A DNA stretch of 64,000 bases from Nitrosopumilus sp. (GTDB taxonomy: Archaea > Thermoproteota > Nitrososphaeria > Nitrososphaerales > Nitrosopumilaceae): assembly GCA_965224195.1 (NCBI GenBank), contig OZ245040.1:672001-736000 (forward strand), read 5' to 3'. Below, in pieces: positions 9,580 to 31,920 of the stretch. Position 1 is the first letter of the stretch, and each line of letters begins with the position of its first letter. The notes under the pieces were generated by a model. It saw only the letters and a list, made by a program, of their open reading frames with translations. It had not been told where the DNA came from and searched no databases. Made by a program: the position numbers and the translations under genes.

Positions 9580-10624
9580 ATAGAGTTCTGATACTAGTCA
9601 ACATCACAGGGTTAATCATTGGAATTTCGTATGGGTTACACGGTCCAATTCTACCAATATTTGCAAAAAATGTCATTGGTGCAACGTATTCCGAACTTGG
9701 TCTAATTGGATTAACCAATTTTATCCCTTACATGTTTATTCCACTTTTTGTAGGGATTCTACTTGATAGAATTAACAACGGATATTTGTTAGCTTTAGGT
9801 GCAGCCATAAATTCTGCATCAATTTATCTGCTATCCATTGCACAATCAGTTCCAGAAATAATGGGGTTTAGAATTATGACAGGTGTAGCTCATGCATTTT
9901 TCTGGCCACCGTGTGAAGCAATTATTTCAAATGAAAGTTCTAAAAAAACAGAGTAAAAAATATCTCATGGTTTACCATGTTTTTTGTAATTGGATTTATG
10001 ATAGGGCCATTACTGGGTACAGCATTACTTGAAGGCCTTGATGTCACATACAGGGTGCTATTCCAAATTGCAGCATTTATTCTCGCTGCTGCAATAATTA
10101 CTTCAGTTGTAGCCTCAAGAAAAAGCGAACAGAGTGACTGCACTGTACCTCAAGTAAAAGGCTGCAATAATTACTTCAGTTGTAGCCTCAAGAAAAAGAG
10201 TAAAAAAACATCACGAGAAATTTTCATTTTCATCAATTAAGAAAATGAAGAGATTTCCAGAAGTGGTAGTGTTGTTGATTTTCTGTACTTCATCGTTTGG
10301 AATAATTCTAACAATTTATCCGGCATTTCTCAATGATAATGGAATGTCTGCATCAGACATTTTGTTATTGTATTTTGTTTTTGGAATTTCGCGTGTTGTA
10401 TCTTTTGCATTAGCAGGAAAATTTGCAAGAAGTACTAGTCAAACTTTGATTGCAGGAACTATTGCAGTATCAGCAGGGCCATAGGGCCAACTATTGGAGA
10501 TCCCATTACACAATCATTTGGAAATGAAACACCGTATGTTGTGTTTTGTATCATAGGAATAAGAGTTACACTATTTGCAATAAGTGCTAGAAAGAAACTA
10601 GAACCACAAAGAATCTCAAATTAG
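9576..10624 (+). pseudogene. MFS transporter pseudogene in at least four pieces
   Basis: MFS helices in ORFs 9576..9956, 9977..10240 and 10245..10484; A-run frameshift near 9945, 73-bp duplication/insertion at 10088-10198, apparent internal deletion near 10480, C-terminal remnant ending at 10624. Confidence 0.85.
10088..10198. repeat. 36-38 bp direct repeat flanking a 35-37 bp unique insert (period 73)
   Basis: GCTGCAATAATTACTTCAGTTGTAGCCTCAAGAAAAAG at 10088-10125 and 10161-10198. Confidence 0.95.
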
Positions 10625-10750
10625 ATATCCACCGTTCCACATTTTTTAGTCCAAGAATAATTCTCATATTGGATACTCAGTGATGAAATTGATTATTTAG
10701 GCGTAAATTTTGAACATTACGTTTAATTTCAATTTAATAAATATCAAAAC

Positions 10751-11098
10751 ATGTTTGATTATTCGCTAAATATCGGTGGTAGTGAATGGATGATAATTAT
10801 TTTTGTAGCATTGGTTTTGATATTAGGTACAGGGAAATTGCCAGGGGCGGCTAGAAAAATTGGAAAAGCAGTAAATGAATACAATAAAGCCAAAAATGAA
10901 ATTCAAGAGCAAATAAAAGATGTCACAGATGAAGTTCCCAAAATTTCAGGGCCTGTTGAAACAGAACGAGAAAAGTTAGAGATGATTGCAAAATCAGCTG
11001 GAGTAAAAACGGAAGGTAAAACAGATGATGAGATAGGAGAAAGCATTGCATCAAAAATTGGTCAAAAAAGAACGGATGAATCTGAAAAAAAAGAATAG
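10751..11098 (+). CDS. tatA: Twin-arginine translocase TatA/E family
   Basis: IGGSEWMIIIFVALVLILGTGKLPGAARKIGKAVNEY. Confidence 0.9.
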   Translation: MFDYSLNIGGSEWMIIIFVALVLILGTGKLPGAARKIGKAVNEYNKAKNEIQEQIKDVTDEVPKISGPVETEREKLEMIAKSAGVKTEGKTDDEIGESIASKIGQKRTDESEKKE

Positions 11099-11099
11099 T

Positions 11100-11876
11100 T
11101 TATTTTGATTTTTTAATTCTATAGATATCCGTATCCAATCGTTTTTTTGCAAATTTGTAATAGTCTGGAACTATTTCAAAACCAAGAAATTTTCTTTTTA
11201 GAGATTTACTAATCACTGCAACTTGACCAGAACCAAGAAATGGATCAAATACCAAATCATTTTTTTCACTAGAATACTCCAACAGTTTTTTAATAATTTC
11301 TGCAGGAAGTTTTGTTGGTGTTTTTTCATCGCCTGTCCAATATTCTCTTTTAATATCCCAGACATCTTCCTTATCTCTATAATGAAGACTCTTACCATCT
11401 TTTGTTTTTTCATCTTTTTTGAACCTAGAAAAAGGGAAAAATTTTCGTTTCTTATCATCTTTGCAAACATAAAGACAGTGATAGTGAGAAGTAACAAATT
11501 TCCTTTTAGTAACTACTCCAAACTGATATTTCCAAATAACATGATTTACAGTCGTAAATCCAATATCGTCTAATGCACGTAAGATATCTTTGAGATTATT
11601 CCAACCTGAAAAAATATACATGCTACCAGAATCCTTTAAAATTCTAAAGATTTCACTCATCCATGCAAATGTGAAATCATAATAATCCTCAGGTTTGATT
11701 TCATTATATCCAGATAACACACTAGAAGAAGTTCGGTTATAATTTGCCTTTTTAGCCTTGAAATTTATTGCAAATGGAGGATCAGTAATTACAAGATCAA
11801 TTTTATTTTTGGGGATTAATTTCATCCCTTCAATACAATTTTGATTGTAAATTTTGTTAATTTCTATTTTTTTCAT
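11100..11876 (-). CDS. Site-specific DNA methyltransferase (N4/N6, beta class), no adjacent endonuclease
   Basis: ITDPPF catalytic motif precedes VFDPFLGSG SAM motif. Confidence 0.9.
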   Translation of the reverse strand: MKKIEINKIYNQNCIEGMKLIPKNKIDLVITDPPFAINFKAKKANYNRTSSSVLSGYNEIKPEDYYDFTFAWMSEIFRILKDSGSMYIFSGWNNLKDILRALDDIGFTTVNHVIWKYQFGVVTKRKFVTSHYHCLYVCKDDKKRKFFPFSRFKKDEKTKDGKSLHYRDKEDVWDIKREYWTGDEKTPTKLPAEIIKKLLEYSSEKNDLVFDPFLGSGQVAVISKSLKRKFLGFEIVPDYYKFAKKRLDTDIYRIKKSK

Positions 11877-11970
11877 TTTTAAATTTAAAATTCTCTTCTA
11901 GCTTAATAATGTCGTGGGTCATAGTACCTATCAAACAATAAATCATCAATAATCCCTTATCAAATAGATC

Positions 11971-14481
11971 TTGAAGTTCTCTTGTCCAAAATGTAAATCA
12001 AAAATTGGTATTCAAAAAACATTCAACAAAAAAATGCATGTTTCTTGTGAAAAATGTGGATTAGAAGATCTGTTAGAGTTTTCAAAAAATGCTGATGAAG
12101 TATTTCTAGAGTTTCTTTCAAGATTTGACAAAGGACTAGTAACTGAAGGAGGGTTATCTGAAGGTCTCAAAGATGAGGGAATTGTGAGGAGAGAAAATGA
12201 AATCAAAGAGATGATAGGCAAAAACAACCCAGATAAAATAACTGAAGAAATTCTGTTTTCAAAAAAAGACTATATTTCACAATACAAGGTTTTGAGTAAT
12301 CCTGAGCCTAAAATGGGCTGTAAAGTAGAAGAATTAGGACTAGATGAATCAATAACTGAACATCTCAAGGAACTAGGAATTGATCAATTTTACAAATTTC
12401 AAGAAGAGGCCATTGAAGAAATTACATTTGGGGAAAATGTTATCATTGAAGCACCCACAGCATCTGGAAAAACAGAAGCATTTTTGATTCCAGTGATTCA
12501 AAGAATAAAAAAAGATGCAAATTATGGGAATGTTTTTGCAATTTTTGTATATCCCACAAAAGCACTAGCTCGTGATCAATATCCAAAAATTCAAAAATTT
12601 GCAGAAAAAATAGGAGTAGATGTCAAAGTCTTTGACGGGGATACAAAACAAGAAGAGCGAAGAGAAATAATTGATAATCCACCTCAAATTCTAATTACAA
12701 ATTTTGATGTTTTACATTATCATATGTGGCATCAAACAAAATTTTCTTCATTGTTATCTTCTACTAGAATTCTCATCACAGATGAGGCGCACGTATATTC
12801 AGGTATTTTTGGAACAAATGTCCATTATATCATAAAAAGACTGAAGCGAATTTGCACCAATAAATTACAATTTGTAGCAGCATCAGCAACTCTTGATGAT
12901 GCAAAAGAATTCTGCCAAAAGTTGTTTGGAGAAAAAATGCAAAAAATTCAAGGTTCAGGTAAAAAAGGAAAAACAGACTTTGTGATGCTTTTCCCATCAC
13001 TGCGAACACAAAGAGCCCTGATGGTAGAGCTGACAAAGAAATTAACTCAAAAAAATCACAAGACAATGGTTTTCAATAATTCACATCTAAATTCAGAACT
13101 TTTGGCAATGCAAGCCAAAAAACAAAAAGTGAACATCAAAGTTCACAGAGCTGGACTAGTGGCAAATTACAGAACATCAGTTGAAAAACAATTCAAAGAA
13201 GACCAATTACAGGCAATCTCATGCACCCCCACGCTGGAATTAGGCATAGATGTGGGCAATGTAGATTGTGTCATATCATCAACCATTCCAGTAAACAGAC
13301 TAATTCAAAGAATAGGGAGAGCAGCTAGAAAAGGTCAGAGAGGCTATGCATTTTTAGCTTTAGGGAATGACCCTATATCACAATATTACAAGAATCATCC
13401 TGATGATTATTTTGAAGATACTGAGAAAACATACATCGACCCCAAGAATCCATTTGTAGAAGAATTTCAAATTTTGGCAATGGCATGCGATAGACCCATT
13501 TCAAAACATGAATTAAAGGAACATCAAGAAGTAATAGAACAGCACATAATTAATGAAAATCTAAAAGAATCCACTAATAGAATCATTCCAAATTTTGATA
13601 AAATCAATTCCATGTTGAGTGAATACAGTATTAGAGGAATTGGTAATTCAATTGATATTTTCTTAGATGGGAAAAAAGTAGGAGACAGAGTATTGCCAAT
13701 TGCACTAGAAGAACTACACAAAGATGCAATCTATTTTCTAGCAGGTATTCGTTACAAGGTAAAGAAATTTGATTATCCAGAAAAAAACTATGCAAAACTA
13801 GAAAGAATTCCAAGAGATTATCCATACTATACAAAATCATTAACAGAAGAATGGCCTACAATTGAAACAGTTTATGAAAGAAGAAAAGCAAACGGTATTG
13901 AAATTGCATTTTGTAAATTACATATTGAAAAAAAGGTATATGGTTATGTCAATATAGAATTAGGACAAGAAATAACACAGGGAGAAAAAGTTCAACTAGA
14001 TTCTCCATTAGAATATGATTTTGTTACCAAAGGAATCGTATTTCATGCACCAAGACCTCTCAAAGTAATTGAAGAATCAGAAGATGAGGAATATACAGAA
14101 GCTAGTGGATACCATGCTACAGAACACGTTGTAATTGAAGGGAGCAATATGATTACAGGTGGAGTTTCCCAGGATTTAGGAGGCATATCATTAGGCACAT
14201 CAGGCTTGATTTTCATCTACGATGGGGCTATTGGTGGAAGTGGTGCAAGTAAAGCCCTCTATGACAGATTTGAAAAAGCACTTGAAAGAAGTATGTTCAT
14301 AGTAAAAGAATGTCCGTGCAAAAATGAATCTGGATGTCCAAGATGTACTTTCTCATATAGATGTGGAAATAACAATGAATATCTACACAAATATTCAGCA
14401 TTAGAGATTCTTAAAAGAATCAATGATGGTGAAGAAACGGTATTAATTGATCCTACTGAAGGAGATAAACCTCTAGTATAA
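11971..14481 (+). CDS. DEAD/DEAH helicase with C-terminal Zn-binding DUF1998 (Hrq1/MrfA-like)
   Basis: APTASGKT, DEAH, SAT, LELGIDVG, QRIGRAAR, CPC...GCPRC. Confidence 0.9.
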   Translation: MKFSCPKCKSKIGIQKTFNKKMHVSCEKCGLEDLLEFSKNADEVFLEFLSRFDKGLVTEGGLSEGLKDEGIVRRENEIKEMIGKNNPDKITEEILFSKKDYISQYKVLSNPEPKMGCKVEELGLDESITEHLKELGIDQFYKFQEEAIEEITFGENVIIEAPTASGKTEAFLIPVIQRIKKDANYGNVFAIFVYPTKALARDQYPKIQKFAEKIGVDVKVFDGDTKQEERREIIDNPPQILITNFDVLHYHMWHQTKFSSLLSSTRILITDEAHVYSGIFGTNVHYIIKRLKRICTNKLQFVAASATLDDAKEFCQKLFGEKMQKIQGSGKKGKTDFVMLFPSLRTQRALMVELTKKLTQKNHKTMVFNNSHLNSELLAMQAKKQKVNIKVHRAGLVANYRTSVEKQFKEDQLQAISCTPTLELGIDVGNVDCVISSTIPVNRLIQRIGRAARKGQRGYAFLALGNDPISQYYKNHPDDYFEDTEKTYIDPKNPFVEEFQILAMACDRPISKHELKEHQEVIEQHIINENLKESTNRIIPNFDKINSMLSEYSIRGIGNSIDIFLDGKKVGDRVLPIALEELHKDAIYFLAGIRYKVKKFDYPEKNYAKLERIPRDYPYYTKSLTEEWPTIETVYERRKANGIEIAFCKLHIEKKVYGYVNIELGQEITQGEKVQLDSPLEYDFVTKGIVFHAPRPLKVIEESEDEEYTEASGYHATEHVVIEGSNMITGGVSQDLGGISLGTSGLIFIYDGAIGGSGASKALYDRFEKALERSMFIVKECPCKNESGCPRCTFSYRCGNNNEYLHKYSALEILKRINDGEETVLIDPTEGDKPLV

Positions 14482-14523
14482 CTAATCAAAATGGGATAAA
14501 TATAACAAGAATTTAGAATCATC

Positions 14524-15351
14524 ATGGAAAAAGTAGCTCTTGTTACGGGCAGTTCATCAGGAATTGGATTAGAAACAGCATTATCATTAGCAAGAGATGG
14601 ATATTACACATTTGCCAGTATGAGAAATGTTGGAAAAGCAGGTGAATTAGAACATGCAGCAAAAAAAGAGAATCTTCCAGTTGAAATTATAGAATTAGAT
14701 GTTGATAAAGAAGAATCAATCATTTCTGCAGTCAAAAAAGTTGTTACAAAAAATGGAAGATTAGATGTACTGGTTAACAATGCAGGATATGGTCAATTTG
14801 GATGTACAGAAGATCTAACAATAAATGATTTTAGAAAACAATTTGAAACAAATTTTTTCAGCATTGTGAGAATTATTCAAGAGATTGCCCCAATAATGAG
14901 GAAACAGAATTCAGGCAGTATAATTAACATTAGTTCAGTAGTAGGGAGAATGGGATTACCAGGTTCTCCAGCTTACATTAGTTCAAAATTTGCATTAGAA
15001 GGACTAGGAGAATGTTTGAGATATGAATTAGGTCAATTCGGAATTAAAACTACAATGATTGAACCAGGAGTTATCAAAACTAATTTTTTCAATTCAATGA
15101 AAGTTCCAGAATCAAAGATTGATCCAAAATACAAGACATTAACTGATAATATTTTAGCAGGTCTCAAAATGATGGTAGAAATGGGAACTGCTCCGTCTCA
15201 AGTTGCAGATGTAGTAATGAAGGCAATTCATGATGATGAAATGTTGCCACGATATGTTGTAGGTACGGACGCTGCCATGTTCATGGAGGCAAAAGACAGT
15301 AAAACAGACCTAGAATTTGAGAAATACATGAGTAAAGAGCTATTTCCTTAG
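14524..15351 (+). CDS. SDR family oxidoreductase
   Basis: TGSSSGIG, NNAG, YISSK. Confidence 0.92.
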   Translation: MEKVALVTGSSSGIGLETALSLARDGYYTFASMRNVGKAGELEHAAKKENLPVEIIELDVDKEESIISAVKKVVTKNGRLDVLVNNAGYGQFGCTEDLTINDFRKQFETNFFSIVRIIQEIAPIMRKQNSGSIINISSVVGRMGLPGSPAYISSKFALEGLGECLRYELGQFGIKTTMIEPGVIKTNFFNSMKVPESKIDPKYKTLTDNILAGLKMMVEMGTAPSQVADVVMKAIHDDEMLPRYVVGTDAAMFMEAKDSKTDLEFEKYMSKELFP

Positions 15352-15426
15352 ATTACATCGTACGCTAAATTGATATACAGATAAAGTAGAATTTCATCAA
15401 AGTCCACAATTTTAAGATGAAATGAT

Positions 15427-17079
15427 ATGAAATGGAAAACTCTACAACACAATGGAATCTTATTCCCAGCTGCATATGAGGCCCAAGGAATTAAGATAAA
15501 AATCAAAGGGGAGACTGTAAATCTCAATTTAACCCAAGAAGAAATGGTGTATCAATGGGCCAAAAAGAAAGACACACCATATGCTCAAGATAAAGTATTT
15601 CAGAAAAATTTTACAAATGATTTTGCCAAAGAACTAAAAATTAAAAAATTATCTTATGAAGATATTGATTTTTCAAACGCTTACAAAATAATTGACAAAG
15701 AAAAAGATCTCAAAGAGATGATGAGTAAGGAGGATAAAAAATCCCTTGCTGCAAAAAGAAAAGAATTACGAGAAAAACTGAAAACAAAATATGGAATTGC
15801 CATCATGGATGGAAAAGAAGTCGAGATGGGGAATTACATGGCAGAACCTCCAGGTATTTTCATAGGTAGAGGGGAGCATCCACTCAGAGGAAAATGGAAA
15901 CCCCCTGTTACTTCAAAAGATGTAACTCTGAATATGGATAAAGAAGCAAAAAAATCGATGAAAGGGGAATGGAAGAAAATAATACATGATAATGATTCAA
16001 TGTGGCTTGCAAGTTGGATGGATTTTCTTACACAGAAAAGAAAGTATGTGTGGCTCGCAGATAGTTCGGATCTGAAACAAGGCAGAGACAAAGAAAAGTA
16101 CGAGAAAGCTATCAAGCTTGAAAAAGAAATTGAAAAAATCAAAAAAGCAATGGTCAAAGATATGAAAGACACAAAAAAGAGTAATGTTGCTACTGCATGT
16201 TATTTAATTTATAGGACAGCAATGAGAGTAGGAGACGAAAAAGATCCAGATGAGGCAGATACTGTAGGTGCTACAACCCTAAGAAAAGAACACATCAAGA
16301 TTACTACAGATACAATAGAGTTTGACTTTTTAGGAAAAGATAGTGTAAGATGGCAAGAAACTCTAAAGGCAATTGGTGACGACAAACAATTTCAAGAAAA
16401 TCTCAAAAAATTAATTGAAAAGAAAAAACCAAGTGAGGAGATTTTCCACACCATTACATCTAGAAACGTGAACAAGTATTTTTCAGGAATTGTAAAGGGA
16501 TTAACTGCCAAAGTGTTTAGAACATTCCAAGCAACAACAGTTGTCAAAGACTATCTTGTAAAGCATGATAATATGAAGGGAAAATCTGCAACTGAAAAAA
16601 TATACCATGCAAAATTGGCAAATCTTGAAGCTGCAATGATGTGTAATCATAAAAGAACCATTCCAAAAACATTTGAGCAATCATTACAAAAGAAAAGAGA
16701 TACTCTCAAAAAAGTAGGAAAAGAACAAGTTTGGAAAAAAACCCAAGAAACTCTCAAAAAAGTAGAATCAAGTACTCCTAAAACAGATACTCAAAGGAAA
16801 AGTAAAGTAAAAAGAGTCAAGACATTAAATGAACAAATTAAAAAACAAAAAGTCAAGCAAAAAGAAAGAGTAGAAAAACTAGAATTACAAATTGACTTGT
16901 CTGAAAAAACTAAAGACTACAACATTGGTACATCATTAAGAAATTACATTGATCCTCGTGTTTTCAAAGCCTGGACTGACGAAGTTGGTGCAGAATGGGA
17001 AAAATTGTATACCTCTGCATTACAAAAGAAATTCCTATGGGTTAAAAATGAAAATATCCTCTGGAAGGATATAAAGTAA
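15427..17079 (+). CDS. DNA topoisomerase IB (eukaryote-like)
   Basis: KWKTLQHNG, EPPGIFIGRGEHP, RVGDEK, FLGKDS, AKVFRT, CNH, GTSLRNYIDPR catalytic Tyr. Confidence 0.95.
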   Translation: MKWKTLQHNGILFPAAYEAQGIKIKIKGETVNLNLTQEEMVYQWAKKKDTPYAQDKVFQKNFTNDFAKELKIKKLSYEDIDFSNAYKIIDKEKDLKEMMSKEDKKSLAAKRKELREKLKTKYGIAIMDGKEVEMGNYMAEPPGIFIGRGEHPLRGKWKPPVTSKDVTLNMDKEAKKSMKGEWKKIIHDNDSMWLASWMDFLTQKRKYVWLADSSDLKQGRDKEKYEKAIKLEKEIEKIKKAMVKDMKDTKKSNVATACYLIYRTAMRVGDEKDPDEADTVGATTLRKEHIKITTDTIEFDFLGKDSVRWQETLKAIGDDKQFQENLKKLIEKKKPSEEIFHTITSRNVNKYFSGIVKGLTAKVFRTFQATTVVKDYLVKHDNMKGKSATEKIYHAKLANLEAAMMCNHKRTIPKTFEQSLQKKRDTLKKVGKEQVWKKTQETLKKVESSTPKTDTQRKSKVKRVKTLNEQIKKQKVKQKERVEKLELQIDLSEKTKDYNIGTSLRNYIDPRVFKAWTDEVGAEWEKLYTSALQKKFLWVKNENILWKDIK

Positions 17080-17122
17080 AATTAGAATCATTTAATTTCC
17101 CAAATTTTCGACCTAACATCAT

Positions 17123-17237
17123 GCCGGGGTAGCTCAGCCTGGTTAGAGTGCCAGTTCAATTGGTAAACTCTAACGGTTCTCCAACTAAGGCAATACTCAT
17201 AATCTGGAGGTCGCGAGTTCGAAACTCGCCCCCGGCA
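17123..17237 (+). tRNA. tRNA-Met(CAT), elongator-type, with 40-nt intron at non-canonical position 30/31 (17155..17194)
   Basis: Acceptor GCCGGGG/CCCCGGC-A, T arm GCGAG-TTCGAAA-CTCGC; anticodon stem CCAGA/TCTGG forms only after intron removal; BHB with central helix TGCC/GGCA and bulges AGT, ATA. Confidence 0.9.
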
Positions 17238-17345
17238 CACATTAATCTCAAATTAAAGATTGGATACCGTACTAGTCACCAAACTATGCAGAACTAGGCA
17301 ATTTTTTACGGTGTCAAACCCAAAGTTCAACACCCTTTGTGAGAA

Positions 17346-17696
17346 TTAAATGGCTCCAGATTTAACATTAAATTGTTCATTCCATTTGTTTGACCATTTG
17401 TTTGCACAATATCCTGTAAATATTGAAAATATTGTTGTAATCATTGATGGAATAACCAACATTACTGGCAATACTGCAAATATCAACATCATTGAGCTTA
17501 TCGATAATCCTATAATCAGAGGAGTAATTCTCAGGGTTTTACCAATTCGTACAAACGGAATAAGTATCAAAAACGGCAAAATCCCATGCAATATGAAACG
17601 TTCAGTTACATACCACAATCCTCCTGCAATTATTTCTAATTCTACTAATGATATATACAAAACAAAACTAATAAGATGAAAGCGCACATAGCCCAA
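17346..17696 (-). CDS. Hypothetical membrane protein (start uncertain, possibly degraded)
   Basis: Several hydrophobic helices, C-terminal KWSNKWNEQF. Confidence 0.5.
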   Translation of the reverse strand: MGYVRFHLISFVLYISLVELEIIAGGLWYVTERFILHGILPFLILIPFVRIGKTLRITPLIIGLSISSMMLIFAVLPVMLVIPSMITTIFSIFTGYCANKWSNKWNEQFNVKSGAI

Positions 17697-17740
17697 ATGT
17701 CAGAATTGTCTGTTGTGTTGGACTGACACTTTTTTTAGAT

Positions 17741-18121
17741 TCAAATATTTTCATTTAAACACCTAATTCTTTCATTGTATTCCATTCCAAAAAATTTAGA
17801 GATTGTAGCTTGCCAACAATCAAGCATCCCTATTATGAAAAGCACAAAAATTACAAAGCCAATCAAGAATATAGCATACACAATTTTCCATTTCCTCTCT
17901 CTTTTTTTATGAGTTATTGGCAAAAAGACAATATTCATAAAATAAAATAACCACATACCAATCATTGCAATATTTTGAGTTGCTGCAGAAATGGTTCGCT
18001 CCAGACTTGTTTGCCACATTATCATAGGTAAAATCGTAAAGTATACTGCCCCAATACTTAGAAATCCCACTATTACTATATTGATTAAAAATAAAATGTT
18101 GATATTGTAACTAGTGTTCAT
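17741..18121 (-). CDS. Hypothetical membrane protein
   Basis: Three hydrophobic segments. Confidence 0.6.
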   Translation of the reverse strand: MNTSYNINILFLINIVIVGFLSIGAVYFTILPMIMWQTSLERTISAATQNIAMIGMWLFYFMNIVFLPITHKKRERKWKIVYAIFLIGFVIFVLFIIGMLDCWQATISKFFGMEYNERIRCLNENI

Positions 18122-18854
18122 TTTTCTTCTTATCTAATCTTTTTTTAATTGCATATAAGATAATAAAAAATACAATCAAAATTGCACCCAATCCCTCAAT
18201 AATTATAGCAGTAAATGTTCCTAGCATAGTAAAAGTTTCACCAGTCTTAGAGGTAACTGGCTATGATTTATCATGGGTATCAACTGGTAAAGGTTCCTAG
18301 CATAGTAAAAATTTCACCAGTCTGCAAGGATTGTCTATTAAAAATAGAATCATCAATTCGAATATTAGAATTAGATTCTCTAAAATCAAGAGGTTTTGGA
18401 GATTCTGAAACACAAAATCCATTTCTGATCATCATATGTTTTTCACATGAGGTTTTACATTCAAACTAAACATGACAATTGTTGCAACATGATCATCTGA
18501 TTTTTTGGTACTAATTGGATATGGACTTGCATCAAGTAAAATAATTTTGTATGGAGAAAAGAATGTGTATGAATCAGTAGGCATGAAATCAACTGTTTTT
18601 GAATGAATTTGATTTTGAACTTGAATCATAGCAGTTACTTGTCCTCCCCAAACACAAGTAACATCAGAAGGACAACGTGAATCATCTACATCATAAAAAG
18701 TAAATTTAAGATCATCTACATGGATAGTCTGTCCAAGGTGTAATTTGATTTCCTTTTCTGCAAAAGATTCGTTTACCATACTAGTTGAAATTAAAACTGA
18801 AAACACAACTAAAATTATCAAATAATAACTAGTTTTCATTCTATATTTCTCCAT
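18111..18854 (-). pseudogene. Secreted/membrane-anchored protein (DSRCPSDVTCVWGG family), frameshifted and interrupted by a duplication/insertion
   Basis: Signal peptide and DDSRCPSDVTCVWGG in 18432..18854; an alternative frame continues (CEKHMIRNGFC...QTGE.FTMLGTFTAIIIEGLGAILIVFFIILYAIKKR) across the 76-bp insertion to a C-terminal TM anchor. Confidence 0.7.
18211..18323. repeat. 37-bp direct repeat (2 mismatches) flanking a 39-bp unique insert (period 76)
   Basis: GTAAATGTTCCTAGCATAGTAAAAGTTTCACCAGTCT (18211-18247) vs GTAAAGGTTCCTAGCATAGTAAAAATTTCACCAGTCT (18287-18323). Confidence 0.9.
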
Positions 18855-22873: not shown

Positions 22874-22915
22874 AAATTAATTTTATTTAGATATTTTATT
22901 AAATAGCAAGAATAA

Positions 22916-23137
22916 ATGAAATTTTCAATGATCACAAAAGACAAATTAAATAAAATTTCAGGAATTATTTCACTTGGTCTGTTTATAGTAATAGTGTTAG
23001 GATATGTCATAGGAAACGAATCATTGTTAGGATTCCCAAATGCCATGTTACTTTATGCTTTAATGCCTTTAGCACTAATCTGGTTTGGTACCAGAAAAAA
23101 TGGGTGTGGAAGTTGCAATCAAAAAATACAAGAGTAG
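22916..23137 (+). CDS. Small two-TM membrane protein
   Basis: Two hydrophobic helices, C-terminal CGSC. Confidence 0.6.
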   Translation: MKFSMITKDKLNKISGIISLGLFIVIVLGYVIGNESLLGFPNAMLLYALMPLALIWFGTRKNGCGSCNQKIQE

Positions 23138-23163
23138 AAATGTAATTAATTATTATTAAAAAT

Positions 23164-24045
23164 CTATTTTTTAGCAATAACTAAATCTGCATCATAATTC
23201 AAAGTTGCACGTGAATTGAGTTTTAAATTCCACGACACATGAGAAGGAGTTTTTGTTTGAGAAATAATTTTAAAGTCCAAATTCCGTAAATTCATGCGTA
23301 ATGATTTTTCATCAAGTGGTTTTTTCACAGAATTAGTTCCCCTATCAAAATCATACGGATCACTAATAACAAAATGGCCTTTAGAGATTTGTTTTGAAAC
23401 ATGTTTTAAAAATTCCATAGGCTCTACAAGTTCTAAAACATTCAATGCAAGAACAAGATCAAATTGTAATTTTCCAAATATCGGGGATAAAAAATCTGCT
23501 ACAATATAATCAAGGTTATTTTTATAAGATTTTTTTGCAATTCTTAAAGCAGAAAAAGATCTATCAACACCAAATACCATCTTGTTAGAGTTCGCTAAAA
23601 AAGAGGTCATAATTCCAATAGAACATCCATATTCTAAAATAAAATTTGATTTTTTTAACGAATCAAGGTTTTTTTGTATTTCAGAATAGAATTTTGAAGA
23701 TGTACTATTTTGATATATCAGTGACCATCGTTCTTCAAGAGTAGTCCTATCTTCATGAGTTTGAGTATTAGATAATGAAGATTTACAAAATTTCTTGAGT
23801 TTTGAATTTTCAATTAATTGATAGAGTTTACCACCTAATCTTTTACGTGATGAAAGGTAAAGAGAAAAATCACTCCATAAAATGGGAATTTTTTCAATTA
23901 TAGGATATCGTCCATTACATTTTGGACATTCTAAAATCCCTTCAACTATTTCCTTGTCTTGTTTGAATAAATTTAATTCTAATTTTGAACCACAATTTAC
24001 ACATTTTAAAAATTCAAGACTAGATTCTAACATGTTCGATGACAA
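23164..24045 (-). CDS. Trm112-like Zn-ribbon fused to SAM-dependent methyltransferase
   Basis: LKCVNCG...ECPKCNGRYPIIEKIP; ILEYGCSIG, GVDRS. Confidence 0.8.
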   Translation of the reverse strand: MSSNMLESSLEFLKCVNCGSKLELNLFKQDKEIVEGILECPKCNGRYPIIEKIPILWSDFSLYLSSRKRLGGKLYQLIENSKLKKFCKSSLSNTQTHEDRTTLEERWSLIYQNSTSSKFYSEIQKNLDSLKKSNFILEYGCSIGIMTSFLANSNKMVFGVDRSFSALRIAKKSYKNNLDYIVADFLSPIFGKLQFDLVLALNVLELVEPMEFLKHVSKQISKGHFVISDPYDFDRGTNSVKKPLDEKSLRMNLRNLDFKIISQTKTPSHVSWNLKLNSRATLNYDADLVIAKK

Positions 24046-24100
24046 ATCAATAGATTTTGAACTATAATTTCTTTGATAGTAAAAATCAAGGTAATCTTAA

Positions 24101-25327
24101 ATGGAGTATTTTGGAATTTTATTCAAATTGGGGGAATTTCAAGAATTTGCAGATGCCCTATTTGGGCAACTATCAGTTGAAATTAATGAAGAAAAGGAAA
24201 TTGTAGAGTTAGCAACTAAGGCTAGAGATGATATTGCAAACAAGGTACAATTCAAAGAGTTAGATGATATTGCGACTGAAATATTACCTGATTTTAAAAA
24301 TAAAGTGGAAGAATTTGTAGGAATAAAGATCCCAGAAAATATTTTATTAAAATTTCCAGAATTAGAAGAATTAAAGAGAATTAAAGGAAACAAAGTATTT
24401 GCAGATAAAGAATCAAAAGAGTTTGTCAAAGAATTATTCAATGCAGTTGCAAAAGAAAACCTAACAAAGATTGCAGAGTTGATGCAACAAGATACTGCAA
24501 AATATTTAGTATATTCTACATATGCTATTCAATACATTTCAAAAATTACAACAACATATGGAGATTATTTAGATTCAGAAATTTATTTAAATAAATTCAT
24601 TTTGTCAAGATATCCACAAATAATTCTACATAAACAAGGTGAACCGTATGATTCAAAATTTCAAAATGTTAATTCAGGATATCTAGGAGCAGTAAAAATG
24701 ACAGTTCTTGAGGAATTAATTCATTCAACACAAGAAAACCTTCAACAAGTAAACAAAAGGGCAGCAATGGAAGTAAACAAAATAAATGAAGAACTAGCTA
24801 AAATTATCTTATCATTAGATACTGAAACAATCAACAAATTATCAGAGTATTGTCAATTACAAGCAGTCCCAGATGATTTTCCGTTTGCAAAAAAAGCTAA
24901 TTTATTTTTCTTTTTGAATCCAGATCATTTCTTAATTGAGCAAATAGGTCCAGATGTTATGACATTTACACATGTAGAAATAGATCCTAAAATTGGAGAA
25001 TCAATTCCAGAATTATTAGACATTTACAAGAGATGGCTAGTTCCAATCCAGCAACACCATGCTGCCTTTACTGCAATGGAAGGAATGGCAGCATTTGTTA
25101 TTGAAAATATCTTAAAAGATGATCAAGATTTTCAAAATTATCTATCAACGTTTATGGGAACTGATTTTTCATCATATCAGGTGAGAAAAAGCATGGGTAA
25201 AGACTTTACAAAAATATTATATGAAAAACTGGGCAAAGATACGTTCAAAAAGATGATAGAAATCCCTCCAAACACTAGAGAACTTAAGGATCCTCAACTA
25301 TATCTTAAAAAACTGAGTCTGCAATAA
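24101..25327 (+). CDS. Conserved hypothetical protein (zincin-like)
   Basis: 408-aa ORF, VLEELIHS and AMEGMA motifs. Confidence 0.65.
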   Translation: MEYFGILFKLGEFQEFADALFGQLSVEINEEKEIVELATKARDDIANKVQFKELDDIATEILPDFKNKVEEFVGIKIPENILLKFPELEELKRIKGNKVFADKESKEFVKELFNAVAKENLTKIAELMQQDTAKYLVYSTYAIQYISKITTTYGDYLDSEIYLNKFILSRYPQIILHKQGEPYDSKFQNVNSGYLGAVKMTVLEELIHSTQENLQQVNKRAAMEVNKINEELAKIILSLDTETINKLSEYCQLQAVPDDFPFAKKANLFFFLNPDHFLIEQIGPDVMTFTHVEIDPKIGESIPELLDIYKRWLVPIQQHHAAFTAMEGMAAFVIENILKDDQDFQNYLSTFMGTDFSSYQVRKSMGKDFTKILYEKLGKDTFKKMIEIPPNTRELKDPQLYLKKLSLQ

Positions 25328-26146
25328 TTGGAAGAAAAATTTGATCCATTAGTTGCAGAGTGGCTTGCATTTGTAAACAATCCAAACTACAACATGGTCG
25401 AAAAATGTCTCAAGTTTGCACAAATTTTAGAATATCCAGATCTAAATGTAGATGATTATATTCAAAAAATTAATCACATTGGAAAAGCACTAAAAGAATC
25501 AATTAGCGATGTAAAAAATCCTACATATTTGATTTCAATGTTAAATGAACATCTTTTTGAAAACTTGGGGTTTAGTGGAGACGATGATGACTACTATAAT
25601 CCAAAAAACAATTTTCTAAATGAAGTAATTGATAAAAAAACAGGGCTTCCAATCACTATTTCAATCCTATATGCAGAAATTGCAAAATTTATTGGGTTAG
25701 AATTAAAGATAGTAGGATTTCCAAGTCATATTTTGGTAAAATACAATGAAGAGATGATTTTAGATCCATTTTATGATGGACGTTTACTAGATGTTGATGA
25801 CTTGCAAGATATTCTTGATGCTAATTATGGAGGACAACTAGAATTTAAACCAGAATTTCTTGACGAAGTTAAACCAGAACAAATTCTTGTAAGACTAACA
25901 AGAAACTTGAAAAATTCCTATGTTCAATCATTTGTTTATGAAAAAGCTTTACGTTGTGTAAACATGGTACTAGTTATTGAACCAGAATCTCCTGAAGATA
26001 TTAGAGATAAAGGGATTTTAGAAGAAAGATTACAAAATTTTGAAATTGCTTTAAAATATTTGAATAAATATTTAGAAATAAACCCAAACGCAGAAGATGT
26101 AGACTTTATTTTAGAATTAATTAGAAGTATAAAGACAAAAAATTAA
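25328..26146 (+). CDS. SirB1/transglutaminase-like protein with C-terminal TPR
   Basis: GFSGDDDDYYNPKNNFLNEVI, GLPITISILY, GFPSH, LDPFYDG. Confidence 0.85.
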   Translation: MEEKFDPLVAEWLAFVNNPNYNMVEKCLKFAQILEYPDLNVDDYIQKINHIGKALKESISDVKNPTYLISMLNEHLFENLGFSGDDDDYYNPKNNFLNEVIDKKTGLPITISILYAEIAKFIGLELKIVGFPSHILVKYNEEMILDPFYDGRLLDVDDLQDILDANYGGQLEFKPEFLDEVKPEQILVRLTRNLKNSYVQSFVYEKALRCVNMVLVIEPESPEDIRDKGILEERLQNFEIALKYLNKYLEINPNAEDVDFILELIRSIKTKN

Positions 26147-26313
26147 TCAATAATTGAATCTACATCAGTTCCTTGTTTGATCATTGAGATTTCATGACGA
26201 GCAATTTTATTTCTTAGTGCTTGTTTGAGGATATCAACTTCGCTTCTAAGTAATGCAATTTCGTCTTCAAGTTTTGCAACTCTCTCATAGATGGTTTCAG
26301 CTTCTGAACTCAT
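26143..26313 (-). CDS. Small coiled-coil protein (56 aa)
   Basis: MSSEAETIYERVAKLEDEIALLRSEVDILKQAL heptad pattern. Confidence 0.65.
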   Translation of the reverse strand: MSSEAETIYERVAKLEDEIALLRSEVDILKQALRNKIARHEISMIKQGTDVDSIID

Positions 26314-26678
26314 AATTATCTATCTGGAAAAATTTGTCTTAAAAAGTTATGGGTAAATGTTTTGATAGACAGGCTAGCTTTTTGAACTATAAGTTAAGGT
26401 AGGAAATACTGACTTTTTCTTTTAATGAGTAACTATGAGATTCAATTTGGCAAGAAATATCTCTGATTTTGGGAATAAAATGAATAGAGATAGGAATGAA
26501 GAATTAATTTAAAAATTAACTAAATTGGTTTTGTAATGCAGTAAGAACCATCAATTCAAACTGACATTTTTCAAATTCCCCATTCAATGTTACAATCTCA
26601 GCGTTAATCAAAGCAATTTGACTTTCAAGTTGAGCAGTTAGCACAGAATCTGATGTGGTAGGGCAATTACAAAAGAAA

Positions 26679-27722
26679 TTAATTCAGATGTGAAAGTAAT
26701 ATTGTAAAAACTGCCCCTCCAGTAGAAGAGTTTTGAGCATAAATTTTACCACTGTGTGCTTTGACTATGTTTTTACAGCTAACTAATCCTATTCCTGTTC
26801 CGGTTTGTTTTGTGGCGTACAATGGCTCAAATATGGTTTCAAGACTATTTTCAGGAATTCCTTCACCACTATCAGTTACAATAATTTTATCAAACATATC
26901 TTCTGTTTCTGAATCCACTTTTATGTTACCTTCATTACTCCCGATAGCTTGAATTGCATTTGAAACTAAATTTATCAAAATATTTTGCATTTGAAATTTA
27001 TCTATCCAAATTTCTTTATCAGTATCTGAAATTATGATTTTAACATTTTTTGAGTGATTAATTATTTTTAGTGTTTCAGATAATAGCCATGAAAATTTCA
27101 CGCTCTCTTTAACAGGGGGTTTCACCTTGACAAAGCTCAAAACTTCATCAATTTGATGGTTCATTCGTAATGCAGCATCTTGTATCCTATCAAAATAATA
27201 CATGTTATTTTTTACTACTGGATTTTTCTTCTTCATAATTTCTAATGAGGTATTTATCACGGTCAGTGGATTTCTCAAATCATGTGTAATTCTTGCAGAT
27301 ATTTCTCCAATAGTAGTTAATCTTTCAGTTTTGATTAGTTCTTTTTGATATGCATCCAATTTTGTACCCAATTCTGAAACCCTTTCAGAAAGTTCATTTA
27401 TTTCACATACCTTTGATGTTGTTTTTTCATTTTTTAAATTACCTTTTGCAATATTGTCTATATTTTTCTTAATTTTTAACACAGGATTACTTATTGATTG
27501 ACTGATATGCACGCCTACGATTGTAGATATCACAACGATAAGAATAGAGATCATGACAACTTTAACAAGAATATTTTGTGTATTGGTATTGATATTTTCG
27601 ATAGAATAATCTACAATTAGCATTCCAATTTTTTCAATTAGAATTATTGGTTTTGATATACGAATTACATCGTCATCTATTTCAAAAATTCTCTTCGCAT
27701 GTGCCATTTCTGTCGCATCCAT
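26679..27722 (-). pseudogene. HAMP-HisKA-HATPase sensor histidine kinase, 5'-truncated by IS
   Basis: ITHDLRNPL H-box, NLVSNAIQA, DSGEGIP, GTGIGL; first about 14 codons lie in IS sequence and the first TM/sensor domain is missing. Confidence 0.8.
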
Positions 27723-28179
27723 TTGCCTCTGTTTGCAGCCTTAATTCCAGTGCTGTCAATTGCCAAAATAATTTCATTCTCAGAATCATTATTCATTGAT
27801 TCATCCATCCTGATGTCAAGCTTGTTTATTCTCTTGTGGATTGATGTGAAATCAGGAACTGCTGGAATGCGTCTGGAATATGCACGTATCATCCCTTTCA
27901 GTTTGTCTGAATGGTAATCCAAAATAGATTCTGGCATAACCTAGCAATTTCATAAACGATTCAGGATAGCCTGGACTTTCTACCTCTTTTATTATGATTC
28001 ATGACCTCTAGTTCTTTATGCCAGTTATCAATAACATCAAATGACATGATGATCTCACCCCTTCTGACTAGTTTCTCATTGTATTGACTCCATTGTACCA
28101 TGAAAATAATTAGAATGTGAGATCCAAAGCTATTGTGGTGTAATGATATTGATCAGATTGTTATTTGTTTGACAAAGTA
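27681..28179 (-). mobile_element. Truncated copy of the same IS5/IS903-like element as 3030..4026
   Basis: Same left end (TACTTTGTCAAACAAATAACAATCTGATC) and 5' transposase half (RIPAVPDFTSIHKRINKLDI, AIDSTGIK), frameshifted, 3' half missing. Confidence 0.88.
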
Positions 28180-28307
28180 ATGTTTTATCTTGCATACTTG
28201 TGGCAAAAGATCAAAATTTGGCACCGGCCCAGTTAAAGACCTGCAGATCTTCTGGCGTATTTTTTGCCTTGTCAAATGTAACTGTTGAGATGAAACTTTT
28301 TTTGATC

Positions 28308-29741
28308 TCAGAGGTCTTGTGCGCTAAAAAAGTTGCCGTGAAATGAGAATGGCACATGGTGCATAATCTGAGCACGTGCCTGCTCCTCAAATGTGGCCGA
28401 ATCTAGCACTAGCAAGAATGATTTTTTGGAGGATGTGTCAAGGACTATGGACAATATTGCCCCTTCGTCTTCTTTCTCAGAGCCCGGCTTTGGTACAAAT
28501 ACCGGCTCTCCGGGATAGCAGTCTTTCTCTGACCATCCCTTGGTGCTATCATCAGTGATGTCTATCTTTACTAAGCCATCTGCAATGCCATACCCCTTTG
28601 TATCTGCAATGCCGTATACGAACTTGTACACCTTGGTGTTCTTTGACTCGTAGTTTATTCTTGGCAGTTCTACTGGCTGTTCAGACAGTTTGCTCCATGT
28701 CGTGGAACCATCTGGTTTTATTATGTATCGTCTTAGCTCAGATGGGGTCATCTTTTTTGGCGTTGTACTTCCCCTTATCACATCAAGATAGAGATTTGAT
28801 ATGATGTCAGGGTTTTCGTATGCTATTATATCAACAACTATGGAATCATCAGTCTCAAATGCATTGACGTGATGAAATGCAAAAAATGCGTCTGATTTTG
28901 CATAGCGTATGCTGCCATCCTTTCTTGATATTATTATGAATCTGGTTCCCCTTTCCGGCTTCCATACAAAATTTTCAATAAACGGTTTTGATCCAAGCAG
29001 TAAATTCATTGGAGATACGACAAACGGAAACTCTGTAAATATTATATAGTTTTTTGAAAGTGCAAAGCTGTGCATGTATGCCGGCTCTTTTATGCCGTCT
29101 ATCTTTGCTATGATCTGGCGCTCAGCAGCACCGGCTTGTGTCTGGTATGCCATGTAACTGCTTACACGTCCCATCTTTGCCATGTAGCTTATCTGAGATG
29201 AATCATCGTCGTGTGGATGTGCAGAACCGATTTGTGCCTCTTGCAGATCCTTTTGTGAATCAGAGTACTTTATGTGGCCTATGGTCTTTAGCGTGTCTTT
29301 GTCAAATACTATGGGCATTGTAGTCTCAGTTAGCGATACGTACTTGCCGTCAATCATCGCAGTGTTTACATTTGGATTGTCAGTAAAGCGCGACCGTAAA
29401 AATACTGATGTAAACTGCTTGAATATGGACTTGCATGGGTCTGTTGCAAACTCTCTAAGTGATATTTCTTTGTCCTTGTCTGCGCCTTTGTATGCATCAC
29501 TTTCTAAAAATTTGTTAGAGTACTTTACAGCACCCTTGCTAATGTCGTATTTGTGTATCATTGCAAGGCCGTCAAACCAGTGGTTGTACTTTTGCTTGCC
29601 TATCTCAAATTTTGCAGGCCCTGTCCTGAGCAATGTTCCGTGTATCCAATCAGGAATGTTTCCTGTTATCTCTAGCTGGACATCTTGAACTTGGTCATTT
29701 AGTGTCGTGGTTCCCAATATTCCATGGATGCTCATGTACAT
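28308..29741 (-). CDS. Carotenoid cleavage oxygenase (RPE65/BCO-like)
   Basis: GTLLRTGP, HWFDGLAM, FATDPCKSIF, SAHPH, YMHSF, FHHVNAFE, ELPRINY, GEPVFVP, FSFHGNF (four Fe-binding His). Confidence 0.92.
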   Translation of the reverse strand: MYMSIHGILGTTTLNDQVQDVQLEITGNIPDWIHGTLLRTGPAKFEIGKQKYNHWFDGLAMIHKYDISKGAVKYSNKFLESDAYKGADKDKEISLREFATDPCKSIFKQFTSVFLRSRFTDNPNVNTAMIDGKYVSLTETTMPIVFDKDTLKTIGHIKYSDSQKDLQEAQIGSAHPHDDDSSQISYMAKMGRVSSYMAYQTQAGAAERQIIAKIDGIKEPAYMHSFALSKNYIIFTEFPFVVSPMNLLLGSKPFIENFVWKPERGTRFIIISRKDGSIRYAKSDAFFAFHHVNAFETDDSIVVDIIAYENPDIISNLYLDVIRGSTTPKKMTPSELRRYIIKPDGSTTWSKLSEQPVELPRINYESKNTKVYKFVYGIADTKGYGIADGLVKIDITDDSTKGWSEKDCYPGEPVFVPKPGSEKEDEGAILSIVLDTSSKKSFLLVLDSATFEEQARAQIMHHVPFSFHGNFFSAQDL

Positions 29742-30221
29742 GGTGGGTTTCTTGATATTTATAATTCTTGTTGAAAATTACATCAAAAATCCATCTTTAT
29801 CTGCTTGATGAAGAGTTCTCATATCAAATACAAAATACTTTGTTTATCCATATTCCCTAATGTAAATTCGTCAACCCTCTTTTCTTTGCATATGTATCAT
29901 GATCAATTCATCTTAAAACTGATCATCTAGACAAATTATGGTGATCATTTAGATCGATGAATAACGATATCACAGATTAATTCATGCAATTCAAGGAATT
30001 GACTGACAAACAAGGGATATCATAGAACAAGAATCAGATATGAAAGGAACTGTGATAATTATTTATCATTTGTTTACTTGGCATCAATTATGATGTATTG
30101 GTGAGTTTTAGGATAAGTTGCATACAAGGGGGATTGTCCAAACTGTCATGAATAAAAGAAAAATTCAAAATCTATAGTAAGAAATCTGCCTGGTTTTGAC
30201 CAAAGCAAAAAATAAATCAGA

Positions 30222-30575
30222 TTATTTTTTCTTTGATTCTTTTATTCGTCTGACTGCAATCTCTTTTGCAAGTTGGCTGATTAGTCGAACCTGTTTTGAA
30301 TCCAGATTAAGTTTGTACATTATTGCCCTGCCTGATCGTCTGGTTCTAGTTATGAGGGATTCTGATTCAAAAGTTCTTATTTCATTTAGAGCAGTCTTGA
30401 ATGATATTCCAGAGTATCTTGCAATATCTGAAATCGAATAATCATAATCGTCAAACACAATTAGAAAATCCAAAATCTTTGATCTGGAACATGGAAATGC
30501 ATCTTCAAGAGGTCCAAATTCCAGAACTTTTCCATCAATCTCCGGTACTGTTTCAGACACCGTTTCAGACACCAT
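30222..30575 (-). CDS. Winged-helix DNA-binding protein
   Basis: DYSISDIARYSGISFKTA...TRRSGRAIMYKLN. Confidence 0.8.
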   Translation of the reverse strand: MVSETVSETVPEIDGKVLEFGPLEDAFPCSRSKILDFLIVFDDYDYSISDIARYSGISFKTALNEIRTFESESLITRTRRSGRAIMYKLNLDSKQVRLISQLAKEIAVRRIKESKKK

Positions 30576-30677
30576 GTTATCGGTAACATCAACATGTATT
30601 TATTATTTACTTGGTTCCTCAATATTATGTAATCAGTTTCATAATACTAATATAATTGCTGTGTATTTAGTCACATA

Positions 30678-30920
30678 ATGGAATTGGATTCGACATCGAA
30701 AAAAATCCTCAAGAAAATGCTGCTGCATAACGTATGTGGCGGAAAACATCACGGATTAGATGATTTGAAGAGGGGATTTCCATCCCATGTCAAAGGTGAT
30801 GTGGAAAAAACGATGAAACAGTTGGTAAGAAAGAATTTGGTTTTAAGGCATCCTACGAAATATGGGTTTCAGTATTCGTTAAATCATGATAAAATAGAGA
30901 AGATTGAAAAAATAATATGA
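30678..30920 (+). CDS. Small basic winged-helix-like hypothetical protein
   Basis: GGKHHGLDDLKRGFPSH...KQLVRKNLVLRHPTKYGFQYSLN; divergent from the wHTH gene. Confidence 0.65.
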   Translation: MELDSTSKKILKKMLLHNVCGGKHHGLDDLKRGFPSHVKGDVEKTMKQLVRKNLVLRHPTKYGFQYSLNHDKIEKIEKII

Positions 30921-31812
30921 TTTAGGATTTCTGATTCATGGCAAATGTGTCGATATTAGATACAATCACCTTCGCAAGGAAGGGTTTGAGAAGATGTCCT
31001 ATTTACAGAATTGTTTTAAAAAAAAATGGTTGCCCTTTGAATCAGAATTTTTCAAGTTTGGTGGCACTGAAAAAACACATCACTTCAATATCTGTTGATT
31101 CTTTGAGAGATGGTGTGTTGCTGCTTTTTTTGGCAATGTACAGAGAATCTGCTGGCATTTCAACCATTGCTATCCATGCCGTTATCACCAATCTCAGATG
31201 CGGTGCTTGTAATTTTGTTTACAAGATATGCCTGATGGCTCTTTGTTGCAGGAATGACTGCTGCACGTTTAGACTTTTTTTATGAGGGTTTCTGCAAAAA
31301 CAATGTCTTTGTCTTTTGGAGTGTCATTAACAGGACAAGCAACTGCAGACTCATCTTTTGATGGTGCAGGTTTTGAATTGCTAAATAAAATACTGATGCC
31401 TTTAATCGTAAGCCATACGAAATTAGAGTAAGAAATCTTCTCTGGTTTTATTAGTTGGACAATCCTTCTTACAATTTGAACTTGTTTACCATAGTTATGT
31501 TTTGAATTAGTGACTTGTCTGGCGTGATGTCTGCCTCTCTAACCATTGTAAAATGAGCTTAAATCTAGAGTTTAAGGTTTTTTGAAATACTCTGATTGTT
31601 CTCTTTTAGGTACGGCGCTCCCTGCTAGTTCCTCTGGATATCCATTCTCCTTTTTGCGAAAATTATCCCGGATTGTATAGATATCATCCATGGTAATCTC
31701 TGGTTTTGGAGATACAACTATGGTAATTTCTGTATTTTGTCTTGGTATTCCTGGATTTGCATTTGTGCACTGAGGTATGCAGTTTGGCGTTTTTGTACTG
31801 TCATCAGGTGGC

Positions 31813-31920
31813 CTTGATCAATACTAAAAACTATGAATCATCTCAAGTAAGTTTCTCAGCCTCTTCTTTTTCAGAATTCATTTTTCTTGATCAATACTAA
31901 AAACTATGAATCATCTCAAG
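31813..31920. repeat. 35-bp perfect direct repeat flanking a 38-bp unique insert (period 73)
   Basis: CTTGATCAATACTAAAAACTATGAATCATCTCAAG at 31813-31847 and 31886-31920. Confidence 0.95.

Follow-up and report, generated by a model that had tools for sequence, protein, structure and literature searches.

Nivala, Shipman and Church are said to have described, in Nat Microbiol in 2018, neo-CRISPR (clusters of regularly interspaced short palindromic repeats) loci with a duplication of repeat length at targets bearing some likeness to the leader-repeat junction. Such off-target integration by the over-produced type I-E Cas1-Cas2 of Escherichia coli is cited in passages of several papers (10.1101/148544, PMC7054753, PMC6698737, PMC9456107), which there treat it as a hazard for cells to suppress; one of these passages mentions 'circumstantial evidence' for natural off-target integration in two other species (10.1101/148544). 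Three structures of this kind were examined in a 64,000-nt stretch of the genome of Nitrosopumilus sp., together with the type I-G CRISPR-Cas locus that lies in the same stretch. This stretch, called the window hereafter, is the whole of C1:672001-736000 in a 2.07-Mb assembly of two contigs with 33.6% G+C (G000; contig 1, C1, is 2.06 Mb long); the genome encodes an archaeal-type shikimate kinase and Orc1/Cdc6, both signs of an archaeon. An earlier note on this DNA had read the structures as off-target spacer integrations. That reading is supported, and those of its proposed tests that could be run came out in its favour. Judged from their sequence, the three structures of the window and about 35 others on the chromosome, 38 sites altogether, are very probably fossil off-target spacer integrations by Cas1-Cas2.

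Like the E. coli neo-CRISPR loci, these sites hold a spacer-sized insert at a non-CRISPR chromosomal position that is attributable to an adaptation integrase. They differ in being natural and fixed, without over-production and at dozens per genome, and in belonging to archaea of two species with a Cas4/Cas1 fusion. They also differ in that none has gone beyond one spacer, so that no new arrays have arisen, and in that about one fifth of the inserts are derived from the host itself, without a TTN protospacer-adjacent motif (PAM). Canonical type I-G adaptation, as outlined in part of PMC10504553, resembles these events in the enzyme family, which is intact here, in the insert of spacer size and in the duplication of repeat length. 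According to the same part of that paper (PMC10504553), it takes place at the leader-repeat junction, in a defined orientation and with the PAM selected via Cas4, whereas no leader, repeat or detectable PAM is involved here. Ectopic acquisition in Streptococcus thermophilus and S. mutans likewise occurs away from the leader-proximal repeat, as passages of PMC7999890, PMC5338259 and PMC8265633 relate. The streptococcal events, as described there, use a genuine repeat within the array, whereas those here use unrelated chromosomal DNA. Casposon target duplications measure about 14-15 bp. Casposons are multi-kilobase elements with terminal inverted repeats, whereas the cargo here is about 36 bp, unrelated between sites and flanked by a duplication of about 36 bp. 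Staggered cuts by a Cas1-family integrase, with a target duplication as the result, are the point of likeness to casposon integration (PMC8464041, PMC6977970). A literature search yielded no account of natural events fixed in large numbers, and nothing of the sort for archaea or for type I-G.

All three structures that had been placed outside the array are present in the window, with periods of 73, 76 and 73 (Table 1). At site 1, a 35-nt insert (10126-10160) lies between 38-nt copies of the local sequence without mismatch (10088-10125 and 10161-10198). The 39-nt insert of site 2 (18248-18286) is flanked by 37-nt copies with two mismatches, both substitutions (18211-18247 and 18287-18323), and the 38-nt insert of site 3 (31848-31885) by 35-nt copies without mismatch (31813-31847 and 31886-31920).

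Contig 1 was scanned for isolated two-copy direct repeats with 12-nt seeds, pairs that overlapped another repeat being excluded. The period was 69-80 in 33 of the 50 isolated pairs (length at least 25, period 15-400), with a mode at 73 (69:1, 70:1, 71:4, 72:6, 73:10, 74:6, 75:2, 76:1, 78:1, 80:1); this is well beyond what chance would give. A looser scan, with at least 27 of 32 matches and periods of 40-130, placed 39 of 57 isolated hits in the same range; the periods of the other hits are mostly multiples of three, as in protein repeats. The looser-scan hits at 778944, 1073455 and 1723250 were dropped; these three comprise one collagen-like repeat, one stretch of low complexity and one duplication of 57 nt. 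The site at genome position 129722 was left as doubtful. New sites at 1090865 and 1277613 were added on inspection, as were those at 146508, 912527 and 1542932, which had been masked by the isolation filter. The number of credible sites on the chromosome after inspection is 38. The expectation of many more such structures genome-wide, drawn from three in 64 kb, was borne out, and the length mode of about 36+37 that had been asked for is sharp in the strict and in the looser scan.

The duplications at the 38 sites measure 30-49 nt, 31 of them 35-39 nt (36 nt at 10 sites, 37 nt at nine and 38 nt at seven). The inserts measure 29-40 nt and fall at 33-39 nt in 35 cases (35 nt and 36 nt at nine sites each). 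The periods, 69-80 with a mode at 73, equal the unit of the resident CRISPR arrays: the spacers across these arrays are 32-48 nt long, mainly 35-37, a range within which most of the stray inserts fall, and the duplication length matches that of the CRISPR repeats (36 nt for type I-G, 37 nt for another array). In all 10 cases with known insert edges, seven here and three in G114 (a second species of the genus), the true duplication measures 34-38 nt. The duplicated copies carry 15 mismatches over 1422 positions, and 12 of the 38 sites have at least one (1-2 substitutions). The insertion events appear to be old and real. No second insert was found at any stray site; the duplicated segments are arbitrary local sequence around a single insert, which would not make functional neo-CRISPR arrays. 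Outside the arrays, 48 three-copy hits with periods of 60-85 were inspected as possible grown arrays, and all proved to be protein-coding or simple tandem repeats. Short duplications of 25-32 nt around inserts of 36-39 nt were also noted, at G000:C1:129726, 196381, 813401, 912673 and 1228750; these pairs could be products of a system with 30-nt repeats or imprecise type I-G events.

The alignment of orthologs, proposed as a way to show a single copy without insert, did show this at 15 of the 38 sites, in relatives or in paralogs. Neither an ortholog nor a paralog was found for the other 23, and none contradicts. For site 1, a pair of matches that abut at the insert was obtained with 16 of 18 relatives of the same genus; the two overlap by 23-40 nt on the side of the relative, which therefore has one copy and no insert. 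Alignment with three relatives left a clean gap of 73 nt. Alignment of site 2 with the relative G015 left a gap of 76 nt and a single copy, and no ortholog of site 3 was found in the five nearest relatives searched. The relative G012 provided an orthologous empty site for seven of the first 33 sites, and six further empty sites came from paralogs in the same genome, at no more than 98% identity. Two copies of a repeated element in G015 have the site at 2052402 in its empty form. Two multi-copy elements, with about 20-40 copies in G017 and G015, were noted in this region (G000:C1:2051295-2052365, or L104:11295-12365, and L104:12474-12800); the stray spacer at 2052402 sits inside such an element, and the two look like insertion sequences or repeated genes.

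The density of the structures was compared in three genomes: this one, G012 and G114. G012, a relative of the same genus with about 87% identity in common genes, was scanned whole (1.56 Mb). It has no CRISPR array, and its match to Cas4/Cas1 is a Cas1-like open reading frame (ORF) of 344 aa only. None of its 13 isolated pairs in the same scan has a period of 69-80, whereas an equal frequency in CRISPR-less relatives would have spoken against integration; its lone looser-scan hit with a period of 72 is a collagen-like protein repeat. G114 was scanned over 1.07 of its 1.87 Mb. Its sole complete Cas1 is a type I-G Cas4/Cas1 with 63% identity to that of the window, and an 83-aa Cas1 fragment is also present. 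Periods of 70-75 were found in 15 of its 19 isolated pairs, a density similar to that of this genome; these 15 comprise 13 clean independent events, one later copy and one doubtful case. The structures track the adaptation module, being present in the two genomes with one and not in the genome without. One stray element has two copies in G114, 206 kb apart (G114:C1:37490-37599 and 243305-243414). Their inserts are identical and their duplicated parts differ by two substitutions, which indicates that a later segmental duplication took the element with it.

Seven of the 38 inserts are copies of loci 0.1-1.7 Mb away on the same chromosome, with identities from 34/36 to 38/38. These matches stop exactly at the insert edges, and the flanks have no match. 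Adjacent DNA, copied by template switching, had been named as the origin that would speak against integration; no insert comes from adjacent DNA, and the seven self-derived ones come from a distance. The insert of site 2 matches genome positions 809918-809956 at 38 of 39 nt, with sharp edges, and three more copies at 35 of 39; the source gene encodes a repeat protein of 3809 aa. Other self sources include the Walker A region of Orc1/Cdc6, a type I restriction specificity-like gene and a PD-(D/E)XK-like ORF found in two accessory blocks. Three of the 14 non-duplicate inserts of G114 have a distant chromosomal source within the part scanned. A single 40-kb stretch of this genome, G000:C1:194940-235782, which includes the Orc1/Cdc6 gene, gave three of the seven self-derived inserts; it may be a favoured place for the capture of prespacers, close to an origin of replication.

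The other 31 inserts have a G+C content of 41.9%, against 35.6% for the self-derived inserts and 40-42% for array spacers, and random 36-mers from accessory DNA have 35% (P = 1e-4 against the 31 inserts). These values fit a mixed origin, mostly from the foreign pool that feeds the arrays, with about one fifth from self DNA. The proposal of a dispersed record of invaders is accordingly in keeping with the spacer-like G+C of 31 inserts and fails for the seven that are copies of the host chromosome. No insert matches any array spacer beyond 11-13 nt, and the whole type I-G array has no match in a phage collection. Comparison of the 288 array spacers with this genome, with G012 and with the scanned parts of G114 gave no match, save for a spacer that consists of a foreign repeat.

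Some duplicated targets end ATTGNNNN, as CRISPR repeats do. The motif ATTG occurs 10 times at 7-9 nt from a duplication end, at nine of 36 sites, versus 1.8 expected, and it occupies the equivalent position, 7-9 nt from the end, in all three resident repeats. Site 3 has it 9 nt from one duplication end. Three sites, site 1 among them, match the type I-G repeat end GCTTCAAT at seven of eight positions in exact register; the duplication of site 1 begins GCTGCAAT where the CRISPR repeat has GCTTCAAT. The duplicated segments are not enriched in hairpins (mean longest stem 4.32 versus 4.30), and the flanks are not AT-rich (63% versus 65%). Target choice appears nearly random, with perhaps a weak preference for ATTGNNNN ends. 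As for position on the chromosome, 27 of 36 sites lie in 1-kb tiles unmatched in G012, though 63% of the tiles match (P = 5e-6). This enrichment in accessory DNA fits purifying selection, and a target preference would look alike. Nine of the 38 sites are no more than 35 kb from an array, versus 4.4 expected when accessory DNA is allowed for (P = 0.026); this nearness is only suggestive.

Several observations weigh against Cas1-Cas2 as the source of these structures, or against its type I-G version. In this genome ATTG is weakly preferred, and in G114 still less so (two occurrences, at one site of 15), and the pooled junction logo of both ends is near-flat, with a peak of 0.24 bit. Four sites combine duplications of 42-49 nt with inserts of 29-33 nt, which a strict 36-bp ruler fails to explain. 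The inserts of sites 1 and 3 have no exact match in viral, metagenome or genome contig collections and no match with up to three mismatches in 150 other genomes of the genus, so that it is their composition that points to a foreign origin. None of the 10 self-derived protospacers (seven here, three in G114) has TT at positions -3/-2 or the mirrored AA, TTN being the PAM type implied for type I-G by the GAA strand in a passage of PMC10504553. No protospacer was found for the array spacers (n = 288), from which the PAM of the resident systems might have been derived; the missing TTN counts against a selection guided by Cas4 but says nothing against Cas1 as the integrase. PAM-less prespacers could be supplied by the PAM-independent trimming that part of the same source ascribes to the Cas1 domain of type I-G Cas4/1 (PMC10504553). 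Lastly, this genome has two adaptation modules besides that of type I-G.

The following mechanism is proposed from the established chemistry of Cas1-Cas2. The integrase, loaded with a prespacer of 34-39 bp, would attack an ordinary place on the chromosome, not the leader-proximal repeat, with the points of attack on the two strands about 36 bp from each other. Gap repair would then copy the 36 ± 2 bp between the cuts, leaving the insert between two local copies. No CRISPR RNA (crRNA) would be expected, since what is duplicated is not a CRISPR repeat, and self-derived inserts would then be harmless and could persist. Without expression as guides, stray spacers would not be exposed to selection against self-targeting, which presumably is why self inserts are tolerated. 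Events would survive chiefly in dispensable DNA.

The genome has three CRISPR adaptation modules, with repeats of 36, 30 and 37 nt. The array in the window has the 36-bp repeats and the 34-42 bp spacers that had been attributed to it, the spacers being mainly 36-37 nt; its repeat, in crRNA sense, is ATTTCCGTAACCAAAATGTTACGGCCCCATTGAAGC, with the 3' end ATTGAAGC. A degenerate terminal repeat lies at about 35132-35167, at the low-coordinate end. The region between the first repeat and cas2 was taken as the leader because it adjoins the cas operon and the degenerate repeat is at the far end of the array. The frame of Cas4/Cas1 is open and stop-free and covers positions 2-546 of the 546 of profile NF049935, and the cas2 gene is likewise uninterrupted. 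Of 121 genomes of the genus that were scored, 10, this one among them, gave a full-length match to type I-G Cas4/Cas1. The two further CRISPR-Cas loci lie at G000:C1:941990-948417 and G000:C1:1450300-1466783. The former comprises 69 repeats, each of 30 nt, together with Cas4, Cas1b and Cas2; the latter comprises 132 repeats, each of 37 nt, together with I-B-like Cas7, Cas5, Cas3, Cas1, Cas2 and Cas4, and an IS6-like transposase was noted near it. Since the system with 37-nt repeats has an equal period, size alone cannot assign the events to a module.

The integrase is most likely the type I-G Cas4/Cas1-Cas2 of the window. It is favoured because a genome with type I-G alone, that of G114, has the structures and true duplications of 36-38 nt, and because of the AGC ending of the three best motif matches. 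It is possible, yet rather unlikely, that the events were made mainly by another resident module with unchanged chemistry, namely the I-B-like Cas1-Cas2-Cas4 with 37-nt repeats, the Cas1b module with 30-nt repeats being a candidate for the few duplications of 25-32 nt. The I-B-like cas1, cas2 and cas4 are uninterrupted, and their array is the largest, with an equal period and spacers mainly of 35-36 nt. Duplications of 37 nt (nine sites) are about as frequent as those of 36 nt (10 sites), but the true duplications of G114 are 36, 37 and 38 nt where the edges are known, and a length of 37 nt therefore does not point away from type I-G. The 37-nt repeat likewise ends ATTGAAAC, to which the targets ATTGCAAC-A and GTTGCAAC-G are closer; the three best motif matches, however, end AGC as the type I-G repeat does (ATTGCAGC twice, ATTGTAGC), and the 36-nt repeat of G114 likewise ends CCCCATTGAAGC. 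The pairs with 25-32 nt duplications and 36-39 nt inserts are few, and duplications of 27-33 nt also occur in G114, where the part scanned has no array with 30-nt repeats. Above all, G114, with type I-G as its sole complete Cas1, has like structures at a similar density. The attribution to the Cas4-Cas1/Cas2 of type I-G in the earlier note thus gains from G114 and is weakened by the two other modules of this genome.

That a process unrelated to CRISPR made the structures, whether template switching or slippage in replication or repair, a casposase or a small mobile element, is very improbable. Such a process would accord with self-derived protospacers that have no adjoining PAM and with targets almost devoid of a signature in sequence or structure (hairpins, AT-rich flanks); Cas1-like genes, possibly casposases, are also common in the genus. 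Template switching, however, predicts neither the sharp 36+37 mode nor exact-edged inserts from up to 1.7 Mb away. The inserts have neither sequence nor terminal repeats in common and are therefore not copies of a single mobile element; each matches either nothing or one chromosomal source, unlike a transposon. G012 has the Cas1-like ORF of 344 aa, yet shows none of the structures. Artefacts of assembly or sequencing are scarcely credible as the source of the duplications, since two independently assembled genomes have the structures and a third has none, 12 of 38 pairs differ by 1-2 substitutions, the twin element of G114 exists in two diverged copies 206 kb apart, and inserts are genuine sequences from elsewhere on the chromosome.

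The effect of the presumed Cas1-Cas2 integrations on genes was counted over the first 36 sites, the row for genome position 3949 being ignored as its flank runs past the contig start. About 12 of the 36 break an open frame, which is longer after excision in silico. At about eight, insertions of 72, 75 or 78 nt keep the frame open and add 24-26 codons, and the remaining sites are intergenic or ambiguous. The description of the events as gene-inactivating therefore holds in part; it may apply to the former group and does not apply to the in-frame one. The gene at site 1, a single MFS_1 transporter ORF of 384 aa in G015, is divided in the window (9576-10484) among no fewer than three ORFs (126, 87 and 79 aa); the stray spacer is thus not its only break, which points to gene decay. 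At site 2, an ORF that has 194 aa in G015 ends prematurely in the window, about 110 nt ahead of the insert. It follows that the claimed restoration of the frame by excision is only partly correct for these two genes, and that, with other lesions present or possible, inactivation cannot be put down to the stray spacers of the window.

Provided that the events are real, CRISPR adaptation exacts a mutational cost that lasts and can be counted, and off-target integration moves from an over-production experiment in E. coli to wild genomes. About 50 natural integration sites would be at hand for a little-studied integrase, bearing on its site choice and on how it measures without a leader. The contrast in self matches, none among 288 array spacers versus seven among 38 stray ones, bears on the amount of self DNA that is captured before selection acts. 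The in-frame events would be a new route for proteins to gain short insertions. The chances are about even that adaptation integrases, of type I-G at least, are a steady natural source of insertion mutations in the genus, leaving dozens of non-array spacers per genome that break genes or add about 24 in-frame codons. These spacers, being unexpressed, would then form an unselected archive of capture by Cas1-Cas2, about one fifth self without PAM and the rest foreign.

Table 1. Probable stray spacer sites and components of the type I-G CRISPR-Cas locus in the window (window coordinates).
Feature	Position	Strand	Remarks
Ectopic spacer site 1 (probable)	10088-10198		Within a fragmented MFS-transporter gene
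Ectopic spacer site 2 (probable)	18211-18323		Insert is a copy from a giant repeat-protein gene elsewhere on the chromosome
Ectopic spacer site 3 (probable)	31813-31920		Just past the UvrD/PD-(D/E)XK gene, 3.3 kb from the type I-G array
Type I-G CRISPR array	35132-41740	-	90 full 36-nt repeats (35205-41740) and a degenerate terminal repeat
Leader of the type I-G array	41741-41911	-	Between the first repeat and cas2
cas2, 96 aa	41912-42202	-	PF09827, TIGR01573
Fused cas4/cas1, type I-G, 556 aa	42206-43876	-	Candidate integrase; NF049935, E 6e-215
Type I-G interference genes	43873-51057	-	Short Csb2-like ORF, Cas3-extension family protein, Cas3g, Csb2, Csb1/Cas7g

Other features of the resident type I-G locus were noted. 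The old end of the array is directly adjoined by a gene on the minus strand (window 31942-35064) for a 1040-aa UvrD/PcrA-like helicase fused to a C-terminal PD-(D/E)XK / Cas4-like nuclease. The Cas3g gene contains a perfect 27-nt tandem duplication of nine codons, in frame (window 46603-46656). One spacer of the array (window 38968-39004) is a foreign type I-G CRISPR repeat, inverted, whose stem has the compensatory changes CCACAAC...GTTGTGG in place of CCGTAAC...GTTACGG. The system seems to have taken up part of another array, perhaps one on a mobile element. Elsewhere on the chromosome, G000:C1:1626224-1626340 holds an orphan repeat of type I-G, identical at 32 of 36 positions, with a truncated second repeat about 37 nt on. 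This is what is left of a mini-array, situated in accessory DNA, with a repeat nearer to those of type I-G arrays in other species.

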